From: Escherichia phage ECP1
Sequence record: KY979108
Reading direction: 5' to 3' (one strand)
Length of the DNA: 40,469 nt
The notes beneath the pieces are model-generated. The model saw only the letters and a list, made by a program, of their open reading frames with translations. It made no database searches and was not told where the DNA came from. Within the stretch, counting starts at the first letter, position 1. Each line of letters opens with the position of its first letter. Shown piece by piece: positions 9,282 through 12,415 of this stretch. Both the position numbers and the translations under genes were made by a program.

Positions 9282-9842
9282 ATGAATGGGATTGTTAGAA
9301 ATGCAGGTAATACCTGTTCCGTTAATTCATGTGAACGGCCAGCGCATTGCAAAAGCATGTGCCAGATGCATTATCTTCGGCTCTATAAAACCGGCTCCCT
9401 TAAAGCAAAATCACCACTCGATAGATTGAGAAGCAAGTATATGGTTGATGAGTCAACCGGATGCTGGAACTGGCTTGCATACATAAATCCAGACGGCTAT
9501 GGGATGTTCAAACATAAAGGGGTGATGACCCTGGCCCACAAAGCCAGTTATGAACTACTGGTCAAGAATGTTCCTGAAGGTTTTGAACTTGATCACGCCT
9601 GTCATAACCGAAAGTGTGTCAACCCAAAACACCTAAGTGTGGTAACGCACAGAGTAAACGTCTGGAACAGAATAAAGCCAGTTAGCTCCACTGGAGTGAT
9701 GGGTGTATCTCTCAGGGAAAGCGGAAAGTACAGGGCAAGACTGACGAGAAATGGCGATATCATTCTCCAAAAGGAATTTGAGACATTATCCGAAGCAACG
9801 GCTGCGGTTGAAAAAGCACGTTGCGAATTTGAGGGCAAATAA
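9282..9842 (+). CDS. HNH endonuclease with C-terminal AP2-like DNA-binding domain (homing-endonuclease type)
   Basis: ELDHACHNRKCVNPKHL HNH motif; C-terminal GV.GVS...SGKYRAR...ILQKEFETLSEA AP2-like segment. Confidence 0.7.
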   Translation: MNGIVRNAGNTCSVNSCERPAHCKSMCQMHYLRLYKTGSLKAKSPLDRLRSKYMVDESTGCWNWLAYINPDGYGMFKHKGVMTLAHKASYELLVKNVPEGFELDHACHNRKCVNPKHLSVVTHRVNVWNRIKPVSSTGVMGVSLRESGKYRARLTRNGDIILQKEFETLSEATAAVEKARCEFEGK

Positions 9843-11302
9843 TGGACGTCATTGTTGATGGGGTTCCTTATGTCCGCGCCGATAGCGTTTCTCACAATAA
9901 AATCGGGATCGCGATAACTACGCATAACAGGCCGCAGGTACTCGCAAATTCACTTGAGCAACATCGTAAACATTTACCTACCGGCGCTGTGGTATTCGTC
10001 ATTGATGACGGGTCCAACCCTCCAGCAAAAGTGCCGGATTGGTGCAAGTTAATCCGGCACGATAAGTCACTTGGGATTGTCGCATCTAAAAATGCCAGCC
10101 TTGAATGCCTTATGGACTCAGGATGCGAACATTTATTTTTGTGGGATGACGATGCGTATGCCATCGCTGATAACTGGCACCTCCCTTACATCCAATCACC
10201 AGAGCCGCACCTGGCTTACCAGTTTCTCGATCTGGCTGGCCCGCGAAAGATTAACGATATGACCGTTCTGTACCGGGATGATAAGCATATTGCTTACACT
10301 GGGCAGCGCGGAGTGATGTTGTACTACCACCGCAGCGCCATCGAGAAGGTGGGCGGGTTCGATCCGGTGTATGGCCGGGGCATGTATGAGCATCCTGATC
10401 TGGCGCTTCGGATTTATAACGCTGGCTTAACGTCCTGGGCGTTTGCTGATGTGGTTGGCTCTGAAAAGCTGATTCATTCGATGGATGAATACGAAGAAGG
10501 CGCGCGCAGTATACCGAGGCCAGAACGTGAAGCGCTCGATAAAAAGAACGCTGTGATTTACGGGCAGCGCAGGGATTCAGGATATACAGGCTATGCCGAG
10601 TATCGATCTCAGCGTGACGTGGTCATCACTACGTTACTAACCAGCCAGCCAGACCCGCAGCGCGGTACGAAAATGGCCGCCTCACCTGACATGCTGGCTA
10701 AATGGGCCTCATCGCTCCGGAATTGTGGCCGTATCGCGCTGGTGGATGAACTGCAGACGGCACCGGCAGACGTTGAGCTGTACCGCGTTCCTGACGTGAA
10801 GATGAATGTCTACTTCCGGCGCTGGCTGCATATCTGGCAGCACCTGCGCGATCACCCTGAATATCGGTTCGTCTGGTGTACCGATGGTACCGACGTCGAA
10901 ATGCTTCGCGCGCCGTGGGAAGAAATGCAGCCCGGGACTGTTTACGTCGGTTCTGAACCGAAGACCTACGCCGACACCTGGGCGAAACAGAATCATCCTG
11001 AGCGTATCTATCAGGAATTCATTGAAGCGCACCGCAACGATGTGATGCTTAACGCTGGTCTGCTGGGTGGCAGCCGCGCTGATGTAATGGCGTTCGCTCA
11101 CGGCATCATCCGTCTTTACTACCGGATCGAGAGTTATCGTCTCTGGAAGAAAGAACAGGCTGGCGCCGCGGTGGGTGACATGCTGGCATTCGGTATTGTC
11201 GCGCAGTCATTCGCTGACAGACTGGTCACCGGCCCTCTGGTACATACCGTTTTCAAAACTGATGGTATCGGTAAGGAGGCCGCATGGTGGAAACACAAGT
11301 GA
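9842..11302 (+). CDS. Two-domain putative glycosyltransferase (N-terminal GT-A / family 2-like)
   Basis: IGIAITTHNRP...VFVIDDGS and WDDD motifs typical of GT-A fold sugar transferases; start overlaps the HNH stop (TAATG); C-terminal domain not assignable. Confidence 0.5.
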   Translation: MDVIVDGVPYVRADSVSHNKIGIAITTHNRPQVLANSLEQHRKHLPTGAVVFVIDDGSNPPAKVPDWCKLIRHDKSLGIVASKNASLECLMDSGCEHLFLWDDDAYAIADNWHLPYIQSPEPHLAYQFLDLAGPRKINDMTVLYRDDKHIAYTGQRGVMLYYHRSAIEKVGGFDPVYGRGMYEHPDLALRIYNAGLTSWAFADVVGSEKLIHSMDEYEEGARSIPRPEREALDKKNAVIYGQRRDSGYTGYAEYRSQRDVVITTLLTSQPDPQRGTKMAASPDMLAKWASSLRNCGRIALVDELQTAPADVELYRVPDVKMNVYFRRWLHIWQHLRDHPEYRFVWCTDGTDVEMLRAPWEEMQPGTVYVGSEPKTYADTWAKQNHPERIYQEFIEAHRNDVMLNAGLLGGSRADVMAFAHGIIRLYYRIESYRLWKKEQAGAAVGDMLAFGIVAQSFADRLVTGPLVHTVFKTDGIGKEAAWWKHK

Positions 11303-11874
11303 AGTTTGTTGTGGTTGGCCATCACTCTCGCATAGGTTATGCGCAACGACTTGCCGCGATGCTGGATGCTCATCTGCTTATTGATGAAGGTAACCGCGGC
11401 GCTAACTGGAATCATCGTCGCGCTATCGAATGGGCTGCTGAGCAACCTTGCCGGGTAGTAGTGTTGGAAGACGACGCGCTTCCTGTGCAGGGCTTCACCG
11501 ATAAGGTGACTGACTGGCTGGTGCGCTTCCCTGACGACATGCTGAGCTTTTATCTCGGTACTGGCCGACCGCCGCAGTATCAGAAAGAGATTGCCGGAAT
11601 GCTGGTGGATGCGGATCGCGTCTGTGGTGACCACATCGTATTAAGCAAACTGATTCACGGCGTATGTTACAGCCCTCCTCAGGGCAGGCTGGGGCGCATG
11701 CTCAGCACCTGGAATAAAACGCTGGCAGCTGATTACGCCGTCGGTGAGGCATTCGGTGGCCGGGTGATTTATCCGTGTTACTCGCTGGTGGATCACGCCG
11801 ACATGCCGACAGTTGAGCGTCACCCTGACAACGAGCCGAGGACGGAACGCCGCCGAGCATGGAGACTGGCATGA
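11284..11874 (+). CDS. Putative second glycosyltransferase-like protein
   Basis: Rossmann-like N-terminus (KFVVVGHH) and acidic VVLEDDALP motif resembling DxD; 19-nt overlap with upstream gene. Confidence 0.35.
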   Translation: MVETQVKFVVVGHHSRIGYAQRLAAMLDAHLLIDEGNRGANWNHRRAIEWAAEQPCRVVVLEDDALPVQGFTDKVTDWLVRFPDDMLSFYLGTGRPPQYQKEIAGMLVDADRVCGDHIVLSKLIHGVCYSPPQGRLGRMLSTWNKTLAADYAVGEAFGGRVIYPCYSLVDHADMPTVERHPDNEPRTERRRAWRLA

Positions 11875-12212
11875 ACAAAGAGCCCCGCGTATATGGCAGC
11901 CGATGGGATAAGGCCCGTCTGCGTTTTCTCCAGCAGCACCCACTGTGTGTGATGTGCGAGCAGCAGGGGCGCATAACACCAGCAACGGTGGTCGACCATA
12001 TCGTGCCCCACAAACTGAAAGATGCGCTTAAGTCAGGTAACCCTCTGGCCATATCGAAAGCACAGCTCCTGTTCTGGAGTAAAGAGAACTGGCAGCCACT
12101 GTGCAAAGCGCATCATGACTCAACGAAACAGAGAATGGAGAAGAGCGGCGCGGTAATAGGTTGTGATGCCAACGGCTACCCGCTCGATCCTGCGTCTCAC
12201 TGGAGCACGTAA
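11859..12212 (+). CDS. HNH endonuclease (terminase-associated, HK97 gp74-like)
   Basis: CVMC...VDHIVPH...NWQPLCKAHHD HNH motif with zinc ligands; immediately upstream of terminase. Confidence 0.8.
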   Translation: METGMNKEPRVYGSRWDKARLRFLQQHPLCVMCEQQGRITPATVVDHIVPHKLKDALKSGNPLAISKAQLLFWSKENWQPLCKAHHDSTKQRMEKSGAVIGCDANGYPLDPASHWST

Positions 12213-12415
12213 TGAAAGACCTCATCATTGAATACCGAGACGGTAAGTTTGTTCAGCTGGCGATTGATGGCGTGGAGATGAAGCGCGTAACATCTATCCA
12301 GTTCTCCCACACCGTAGGCGAGGACGTACCGACATTGACCGTCTCAGGACATGTGTGGTCCGAGTATGGGAAAGGCGATCACAAACTCGAACAGGTAGAC
12401 AAACATTCGGCATAG
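12212..12415 (+). CDS. Hypothetical small protein
   Basis: ORF coupled to the HNH gene. Confidence 0.4.
   Translation: MKDLIIEYRDGKFVQLAIDGVEMKRVTSIQFSHTVGEDVPTLTVSGHVWSEYGKGDHKLEQVDKHSA

Follow-up and report, generated by a model that had tools for sequence, protein, structure and literature searches.

The circularly permuted genome of Escherichia phage ECP1 (sequence record KY979108; 40,469 bases, the whole of which we refer to as the window) is that of an HK022/HK542-like lambdoid E. coli phage (Hendrixvirinae). Positions 9282–12415 hold a tightly packed block of overlapping genes, all on the + strand, that includes two predicted soluble glycosyltransferases, GT486 and GT196, whose function is considered here. 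The features of the block and of the adjoining cos region are as follows.

9282–9842, + strand: HNH_3 / His-Me finger homing-type endonuclease, 186 residues (Pfam HNH_3, E 3.7e-8)
9842–11302, + strand: GT486, 486 residues (phrog_1579 'glycosyltransferase', E 2e-248)
9842–10612, + strand: GT486 N-terminal domain (residues ~1–257), GT-A fold of GT2 / Glyco_transf_7C type, with DDxS at residues 55–58 and DDD at 102–104
10613–11302, + strand: GT486 C-terminal domain (residues 258–486), conserved, with motifs DPQRG, W-x-V-D-x-T-D-V, V-G-x-E, L-L-N-A-G-x-x-G-G, D-M and a C-terminal H-K
11284–11874, + strand: GT196, 196 residues (phrog_854 'glucosyltransferase', E 7e-72)
11859–12212, + strand: HNH endonuclease of the HK97 gp74 type (Pfam HNH), with the homologous start at the second ATG, 11871
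12212–12415, + strand: 67-residue open reading frame (ORF) of unknown function (phrog_10282), the last gene ahead of the cos region
12416–12599, no strand: non-coding cos region, placed by alignment to the start of the linear HK542 genome

Four of these ORFs had been described in a first-pass annotation of the same DNA, and all four are present at the positions given there, on the + strand; the 67-residue ORF is added here. Consecutive genes overlap or abut, with a TAATG at 9840–9844 between the HNH_3 gene and GT486, a 19-nt overlap between GT486 and GT196 that places a Shine-Dalgarno sequence (TAAGGAGG) inside GT486 and 5 nt ahead of the GT196 ATG, an ATGA at 11871–11874 between GT196 and the gp74-type HNH gene, and a TAATG at 12210–12214 ahead of the last ORF. 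These junctions support the translational coupling proposed at first pass, and that proposal is sound. No promoter-like site was found just upstream of the transferases and no terminator between them and cos.

Sequence families of GT486 and GT196

GT486 comprises an N-terminal GT-A domain (residues ~20–257) and a conserved C-terminal domain (residues 258–486) with no family match. The window protein scores 22.5 bits against the Pfam GT2 model PF00535, just below the 23.3 cut-off, and among 86 diverse relatives 65 match GT2 and 59 match Glyco_transf_7C; at the sequence level, the family clearly belongs to GT2 / GT-A. The combined GT2 and Glyco_transf_7C signature is also found in polypeptide GalNAc-transferases, and a profile of the N-terminal domain matched chondroitin synthase, the TagF N-domain, heparosan synthase, B4GalT7 and ppGalNAc-T in the PDB, where a search with the GT486 sequence found nothing. 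An exhaustive search for relatives returned 1417 clusters at 50% identity, 243 of them with E below 1e-30, and nearly all members are two-domain proteins of ~450–490 residues.

The C-terminal domain is conserved as strongly as the N-terminal one (243+ clusters) and has no significant Pfam or PDB match, two members showing weak GT34 matches at E 0.12. Its motifs (DxD-like and NAG) presumably resemble those of GT8/GT34 enzymes, and we propose on this basis that it is a second sugar-transferase domain. A profile of this domain matched only a de novo TIM barrel in the PDB, through the string 'VDATDV', which we do not regard as a family match. Foldseek searches with an AlphaFold2 model of GT486 returned heparosan synthase 2 (E 1e-3, TM 0.16), which we take to be an enzyme with two GT-A domains, and weak local GT-A matches to TarP and B4GALNT1; neither result was relied on. 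Comparison of the two GT486 domains and GT196 using hhalign aligned only a helix-strand-DxD segment, without significance.

The window GT196 alone has no Pfam, NCBIfam or PDB match. Six of 14 aligned relatives match PF01755 (GT25, the family of lipooligosaccharide/lipopolysaccharide (LOS/LPS) core galactosyltransferases), with a best E of 7.9e-8, and the GT196 profile gives weak PDB matches (E 0.05–0.8) to mimivirus R655 and GT25 structures, with which its core aligns as G-x-G-C...N-H...W...(V/L)-L-E-D-D. GT196 differs from GT25 in having C-terminal motifs of its own (S-L-V-D-H-x-D and R-x-x-x-R-x-A-W) and in being, at 196 residues, much shorter than typical GT25 enzymes. We propose that it is a divergent GT25-like GT-A transferase orthologous, by sequence, to gp110 of mycobacteriophage Che8 and to the gp36/38 enzyme of cluster O. 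GT25 as defined by CAZy includes the collagen hydroxylysine galactosyltransferases, a precedent for protein O-glycosylation, and the mimivirus GT25-type enzymes are also members. A PDB match to proteasome beta-4 (E 0.01–0.3) became weaker with the profile and was set aside as chance, and Foldseek on a poor GT196 model returned nothing significant.

The motifs quoted for the two proteins at first pass are real and conserved. V-D-D-x-S and F-L-x-D-D-D are kept across the 86 GT486 family members, and distant relatives show little or no variation at D55/D56/S58 and D102–D104 of GT486 and at E62-D63-D64 of GT196. Since the catalytic-type motifs of both enzymes are invariant down to ~30% identity, the genes appear to be under selection.

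Homologues in mycobacteriophages and enterobacterial prophages

Translated searches (tblastn) of 50,697 phage genomes recovered full-length homologues of both proteins mainly in mycobacteriophages. GT486 matched 610 phage records, 568 of them Mycobacterium phages, and GT196 matched 723 (662 Mycobacterium), the latter also in Gordonia, Klebsiella/Serratia jumbo phages and Cronobacter phages. The alignment of GT196 with Che8 gp110 spans both proteins (33% identity over 192 residues, E 3e-23), and GT196 is also related to gp36 of the cluster O (Corndog-type) phage FoulBall (E 3e-19). The counterpart of GT486 is a 475-residue transferase that most other cluster F phages carry in place of Che8 gp108/gp109, two genes upstream of the gp110 homologue; the two proteins align over their full length (GT486 residues 2–486) with 43–45% identity (E ~1e-120). 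Capsid glycosylation requires the glycosyltransferases Che8 gp110 and Corndog gp38 (PMC12363180), and the proteins of the capsid and tail tube are modified by tandem transferases in cluster O (PMC11600133) as well as in Che8 (PMC11256854), all three sources citing Freeman et al. 2023, Cell Host Microbe 31:1216. Both ~300 kb jumbo phages MN871448.1 (Serratia phage KpSz_1) and PV112478.1 (Klebsiella phage LPKP23) also encode homologues of the pair, with 53% full-length identity to GT486 and 42% to GT196.

Soluble transferases lie outside the canonical lambdoid gene set, as the first-pass annotation stated, and the pair is rare, not new, among lambdoid phages. The records of HK542 (gp54/gp55), mEp390 (gp54/gp56), ENT39118, LMessi, Fostie and others already label it 'glycosyltransferase / glucosyltransferase', a name and nothing more. 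The pair occurs in about 3–4 of 5426 complete E. coli genomes and is common in prophages of Enterobacter, Citrobacter, Cronobacter, Klebsiella, Salmonella, Leclercia and Pantoea. Clustering at 90% identity gives more than 1000 clusters for GT486 and more than 1800 for GT196, the nearest proteins being encoded by Enterobacter prophages (94–95% identity). We found in the literature no paper giving a function to the HK542, mEp390 or ENT39118 transferases and no report tying enterobacterial transferases to the mycobacteriophage system. This kind of system is known from mycobacteriophages (2023) and the genes have names in databases; what appears new, from the sequence comparisons, is its extension to the enterobacterial HK97 family.

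Synteny with virion genes

Alignment of window positions 12400–37000 with the linear HK542, HK446 and mEpX2 genomes places position 1 of those records at window ~12600 (query position 201), so cos lies within the gap 12416–12599 and the transferase block forms the extreme right end of the packaged genome. The window order is accordingly GT486, GT196, HNH, the 67-residue ORF, cos and terminase. The Che8 right end reads gp108-gp109-gp110 (transferases), gp111, gp112 (HNH) and the genome end/cos, with terminase at the left end, and that of Priscilla reads GT478, a small ORF, GT207, HNH and the end.

Elsewhere, homologues are embedded among virion genes. The cluster O transferases lie between the portal and capsid protease genes; the pair comes directly after the major tail subunit gene in ENT47670, a Cronobacter phage of a different type; and Gordonia phage BlueNGold has it flanked by the genes for the head-tail adaptor and tail chaperone. 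Two IMG/VR contigs (L007 and L008) and the Enterobacter and Pantoea prophages (L095 and L096, respectively) carry the pair followed by HNH-terminase-portal-protease-capsid. L007 and L008 alone are informative among the related IMG/VR loci, almost all of which are cluster F right ends without capsid genes. Such repeated embedding is predicted by a virion-modifying function and would be unexpected for a host-conversion moron.

A C-terminal Gly-Ser on capsid and tail proteins

Freeman and colleagues are said to report, in their abstract, that the mycobacteriophage glycans attach through O-linkage to the C termini of capsid and tail-tube subunits; secondary sources on mycobacteriophage glycosylation do not give the attachment site. 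Guided by this linkage, we examined C termini. Only three of the 182 six-frame window ORFs of at least 60 residues end in Gly-Ser, and these encode the capsid, adaptor and tail-tube proteins.

16578–17735, + strand: major capsid protein, HK97 gp5 type, 385 residues, ending ...KGTFSSGS (predicted acceptor)
17769–18095, + strand: head-tail adaptor, HK97 gp6 type, 108 residues, ending ...AESEEGS (possible third acceptor)
19277–19747, + strand: major tail (tube) protein, 156 residues, ending ...RIYASGS (predicted acceptor)

The corresponding proteins of other transferase-carrying lineages end as follows.

Che8: capsid ...NKTGS; tail tube ...YSDGS
FoulBall: capsid ...PLVGS; tail tube ...IKGDS
L007 and L008: capsids ...TPSGS and ...APAGS, respectively; tail tube outside the locus
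ENT47670: capsid ...GEATS; tail tube ...SEPSS
FSL SP-016: capsid ...GAGAGS (also the L095 capsid); tail tube ...IDPGS
Fryberger: capsid ...PYAGS; tail tube ...EEPAS
BlueNGold: capsid ...PAVGS; tail tube ...AVSGS; gp87 ...STGS; adaptor gp90 ...STGS
Pantoea prophage: capsid ...FASGS; tail tube ...VASGS; adaptor ...HEEGS

The capsid C-terminal sequences of these lineages are dissimilar apart from the ending, and the homologues of the window tail-tube protein in FSL SP-016 and the Pantoea prophage keep Gly-Ser. To assess the association with the cassette, we compared 16 capsid and tail-tube proteins from nine transferase-carrying lineages with 17 proteins from controls without transferases: lambda, L5, TM4 and Giles together with eight HK97-family capsid proteins of Pseudomonas, Vibrio, Moraxella, Paracoccus, Acinetobacter, Arthrobacter, Microbacterium and Salinibacter phages. 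A terminal Ser is present in 16/16 transferase-associated proteins and 4/17 controls (one-sided Fisher p 4e-6), and a terminal Gly-Ser in 12/16 and 1/17 (p 5.5e-5), statistics that are indicative only because the lineages are few and hand-picked and the counts ignore phylogeny. In BlueNGold (L098, 14026–20797), four virion-region proteins end in Gly-Ser (the capsid hexamer protein, gp87, the major tail protein and the adaptor), so the tagged set can exceed the capsid and tube.

A model for virion glycosylation

We consider it probable that the transferase pair serves to glycosylate virion proteins. Enzyme homology, the HNH/cos synteny, placement in structural operons and the Gly-Ser ends all point to this role. 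The likeness to the mycobacteriophage system extends to a gp110-family enzyme, an adjacent second transferase, a right end of transferases-HNH-cos and Gly-Ser ends on capsid and tail-tube proteins; from the enzyme homology and the shared ends, the particles are probably glycosylated. The system differs in the Gram-negative enterobacterial host and lambdoid HK97/HK022 type of the phage, in being known here from genes alone, in having no O-methyltransferase and in that relatives of the window phage without the cassette share the tagged capsid protein. To our knowledge, glycosylation of phage particles has been shown only in mycobacteriophages.

In the proposed mechanism, the transferases would be transcribed late from pR', sharing a Q-dependent transcript with the genes for lysis, packaging, head and tail, and would act as soluble enzymes in the cytoplasm on newly made virion proteins. 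Their donors would be host nucleotide sugars (uridine diphosphate (UDP)-sugars), as the window encodes no sugar-nucleotide enzymes. GT196 would recognize the free C-terminal ...Gly-Ser of the capsid, major tail and possibly adaptor proteins and O-link a first sugar onto the C-terminal Ser, and we rate the chance that this residue is the acceptor at about even. GT486 would then lengthen the glycan by up to two sugars, one per domain. GT196 is suggested as the initiator since its family is common to all cassette-carrying lineages, is reported to be essential and can occur alone; this division of labour, with GT196 initiating and GT486 extending, is put forward tentatively, at somewhat less than even odds. 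HK633 (L107, 3073–4073) carries GT196 without GT486, with a small reverse ORF ahead of it, consistent with GT196 being an autonomous core enzyme; a small reverse ORF of this kind is also present between the two transferases of L095. The head and tail surfaces of the particle, on which the C termini are presumed to be exposed, would carry hundreds of short glycans that, by analogy with mycobacteriophages, may mask protein epitopes. Neither HNH_3 nor the gp74-type HNH protein would take part in the sugar chemistry.

A functional parallel comes from chlorovirus PBCV-1, whose A111/114R is a multi-domain glycosyltransferase that builds the capsid-protein glycan (PMC7826918). It too is a virus-encoded, soluble, multi-domain enzyme that glycosylates the major capsid protein in the cytoplasm; it differs in belonging to a eukaryotic giant virus and in making N-linked atypical glycans, and the resemblance drawn here is one of function.

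Several observations weigh against a virion-glycosylation role, alongside the limits on the tag statistics given above. HK97, HK022, HK75, mEpX2 and others have no transferases and yet share the same SGS/EGS capsid and adaptor ends, which read ...SSGS and ...EEGS in HK97, so the tag does not track the cassette within Hendrixvirinae. Possibly, head modules and the right-end cassette reassort freely and the tag outlasts the cassette, in which case HK97 capsids would be latent acceptors; it is also possible that the tag serves another role. The capsid protein of the control Salinibacter phage 4_20 (L106) ends in ...PTAGS in a genome with no detectable transferase homologue, which could reflect chance or an unrelated transferase, and a terminal Ser in the absence of any transferase also occurs in the tail-tube proteins lambda V and HK97 gp12. 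GT486 has no homology to Che8 gp108 or gp109, so the glycan would differ from the characterized one. The profile searches suggested at first pass matched both proteins to transferase PHROGs and gave no family for the GT486 C-terminal domain, and the AlphaFold2 models were too poor to use (pLDDT, the predicted local distance difference test, of 52.5 for GT196 and 48.6 for GT486, both from close-relative alignments). Our literature search found no report of a glycosylated enterobacterial or Gram-negative phage virion, and Freeman and colleagues reportedly found little evidence for glycosylation outside actinobacteriophages. The C-terminal Gly-Ser regularity is likewise unreported in the literature we searched, though Freeman et al. 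2023 may describe it.

Alternative functions

The first-pass annotation had proposed three candidate roles; the evidence favours virion-protein glycosylation and does not support glycosylation of phage DNA or a host-modifying exclusion function. Sugars on phage bases could protect against restriction or CRISPR, in the manner of T-even phages or TET/TAGT systems; the genes adjoin the packaging genes, GT-A enzymes such as JGT and TAGT are understood to be able to glycosylate DNA, and 15 of the 86 GT486 relatives, although not GT486 of the window itself, have weak Pfam matches to TAGT (PF20691). In relatives examined individually, however, these scores reach at most 21 bits against a cut-off of 27.5 and fall on the same N-terminal GT-A stretch that GT2 matches better, and we rejected the lead as a generic GT-A cross-match. 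The T4 alpha/beta-glucosyltransferases and TAGT resemble the pair as phage-encoded soluble sugar transferases, TAGT sharing the generic GT-A fold, but act on hydroxymethylated DNA bases, which the window phage has no means to make. It encodes no dCMP/dUMP hydroxymethylase, C5-methylase or TET/JBP protein and has a Dam-type N6-adenine methylase only; Pfam matches in the early/nin region are confined to NinB, Dam, YbcO, RusA, SSB and Rad52, and elsewhere the genome has the usual HK022/HK542 backbone. With the homologous mycobacteriophage enzymes acting on proteins, DNA as the target is very improbable. Modification of the host envelope, as lysogenic conversion or superinfection exclusion, with sugars added at the cytoplasmic face of the inner membrane to an envelope glycan such as the LPS core or enterobacterial common antigen so as to alter the receptor that other phages see, would fit the naming of GT25, the family nearest GT196, for LPS/LOS core transferases, the variable presence of the cassette among otherwise near-identical phages and the lysis-cos interval being, as is generally known, a home of morons in lambdoid phages. 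We nevertheless regard it as unlikely. The block is coupled within the late operon and has no promoter-like site or terminator of its own, homologues lie within structural operons in three unrelated phage groups, the characterized homologues modify virion proteins (PMC12363180, PMC11600133) and the Gly-Ser association on capsid and tail proteins would be left unexplained. As the first-pass annotation noted, there are no gtrABC-type membrane partners: no GtrA flippase, GtrB or polytopic Gtr gene was identified among the window ORFs, nor such partners in annotated near-identical relatives (transmembrane prediction was not run). ENT47670 (L087; 6007–7334 and 40111–42143) carries a bactoprenol glucosyltransferase/flippase (gtrA/gtrB-type) module for O-antigen conversion beside its integrase in addition to the soluble pair; the two lie far apart, which argues for two separate sugar systems.

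Another target of the lytic phase, such as a host protein, a non-structural phage protein or a small-molecule immune signal, would make the pair a takeover or anti-defence function. PHROGs classes both families under 'moron, auxiliary metabolic gene and host takeover', the GT486 C-terminal domain matches no known family, and HK97-type phages assemble normally without the cassette, which is hence accessory. Such a target has a low probability in our estimate, given that it explains neither the placement in head/tail clusters nor the tag association and that such experimental data as exist for the family implicate virion proteins. No PADLOC defence or anti-defence model matched either transferase, and the anti-restriction and anti-defence rationale offered at first pass has no support. 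Finally, the cassette could be a silent passenger, brought in recently from Enterobacter-type prophages by homing-endonuclease-driven recombination and finding no acceptor or donor sugar in its new setting. The Enterobacter origin of the closest proteins, the rarity of the cassette in E. coli and a mosaic joint in GT486 at window ~10067, beside the inserted HNH gene, are what such a history would leave. We think this distinctly unlikely, as neither ORF is disrupted and each retains every conserved motif, the window phage itself carries the predicted acceptor tags, and the cassette and the same structural module are kept together in the independently isolated Hong Kong/Mexico coliphages HK542, mEp390 and HK633.

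Implications of a possible portable tag

The virion-glycosylation reading leads to a further, speculative proposal, to which we give a little less than even odds: that the small GT25-like transferases of the gp110/GT196 family read a free C-terminal Gly-Ser as a portable 'glyco-tag' in phages of Actinobacteria and Enterobacteria alike. If so, cassette-carrying HK97-type coliphages would be glycosylated on every capsid and tail-tube subunit, the HK97 capsid protein would be a ready acceptor short only of the enzymes, and virion glycosylation would be a cross-phylum phage trait and not an actinobacteriophage speciality. HK97-family virions from relatives with the cassette would then need their structures and masses re-read, and two genes with a C-terminal Gly-Ser would provide an E. 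coli handle for coating phages or protein cages with defined glycans. Glycosylation of mycobacteriophages blunts antibody recognition and is relevant to phage therapy. The same enzymes, gene order and presumptive tag in coliphages and enterobacterial prophages suggest that the trait is much wider, and it would operate in gut bacteria, whose phages encounter animal immune systems and mucus. The idea is readily testable, E. coli K-12 being a host for these phages and their shared HK97 capsid being better understood than any other.

Endonucleases flanking the transferases

We conclude that neither HNH gene is functionally part of the transferase system. The first-pass annotation described the upstream gene as an HNH-AP2 endonuclease; the homing-type HNH_3 assignment holds (phrog_3593, E 4e-65; PADLOC 'homing endonuclease', E 8e-11), and no profile detected an AP2 domain at E < 0.1. 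The gene is absent from HK542 at this place. DNA matches to transferase-carrying phages all begin at window 10067 (GT486 codon ~76), from where identity to HK542 is 98% and the GT196 proteins are 100% identical; the DNA of HNH_3 and of the first ~75 GT486 codons differs in sequence from HK542 and is Enterobacter-like. HK542 thus has the same two gene families in the same slot, differing from the window in its lack of the HNH_3 gene, of two further ORFs upstream and of the Enterobacter-like GT486 5' end; mEp390, ENT39118 and ENT47670 share the two families. In L095, an Enterobacter bugandensis prophage, a 186-residue HNH_3 protein is encoded directly upstream of a GT486 with 95% identity, and window 9282–10067 resembles this prophage. 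The joint within GT486 suggests co-conversion by a homing endonuclease. In mEp390 (L002, 5277–5789), a different HNH endonuclease lies between the two transferase genes. The upstream HNH_3 gene, a selfish homing endonuclease, landed beside the cassette, and the locus is a homing hot spot and not a nuclease-transferase system.

The downstream HNH protein, read from ATG 11871, is identical to HK97 gp74 at 101 of 102 residues (99%), and its gene directly precedes cos and the small terminase gene. We take gp74 to be a terminase accessory for cos cleavage and read 11871–12212 as such.

Late-region context

The transferases would be co-transcribed with the packaging and structural genes, the presumed source of the late transcript through the lysis genes, transferase block, cos and virion genes being a pR'/tR'-like site downstream of Q. 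In the lambda paradigm, Q-modified polymerase reads through the late terminator, and read-through in the window is proposed on that basis; the HK542 and HK633 records annotate equivalent pR'/qut sites. The first-pass annotation had placed the block directly after Rz, whereas three ORFs intervene.

5213–5836: Q, upstream of the pR'-like site
5879–5969, + strand: pR'/tR'-like site, promoter TTGACT-17-TAAATT followed by a strong hairpin terminator
6270–6593: holin
6577–7053: endolysin
7050–7487: Rz
7689–8186: KilA-N/ORF11CD3 protein, between Rz and the transferase block
8183–8452: small ORF, between Rz and the transferase block
8614–9090: 158-residue ORF of unknown function (phrog_18591), low in G+C, between Rz and the transferase block

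The KilA-N + ORF11CD3 protein matches the PADLOC candidate defence family PDC-S22 (E 1e-8), and HK542 and HK633 have just a ~75-residue KilA-N fragment at its position. The phrog_18591 ORF has no Pfam or PADLOC match and is missing from HK542; it occupies the stretch where the region's G+C is at its lowest (about 42%) and is followed at ~9128–9152 by a hairpin and T-run, which together give it a moron-like appearance.

The replication/nin/lysis region is 96–98% identical to mEpX2, HK542 and HK022, and the structural region is 98.7% identical to HK542 and 94–98% identical to HK75, HK446, mEp506 and mEpX2. The 156-residue major tail protein of the window is a different protein from HK97 gp12 (234 residues; L091, 6733–7437), and since the head genes are near-identical to those of HK97, a boundary between head and tail modules appears to run within Hendrixvirinae.

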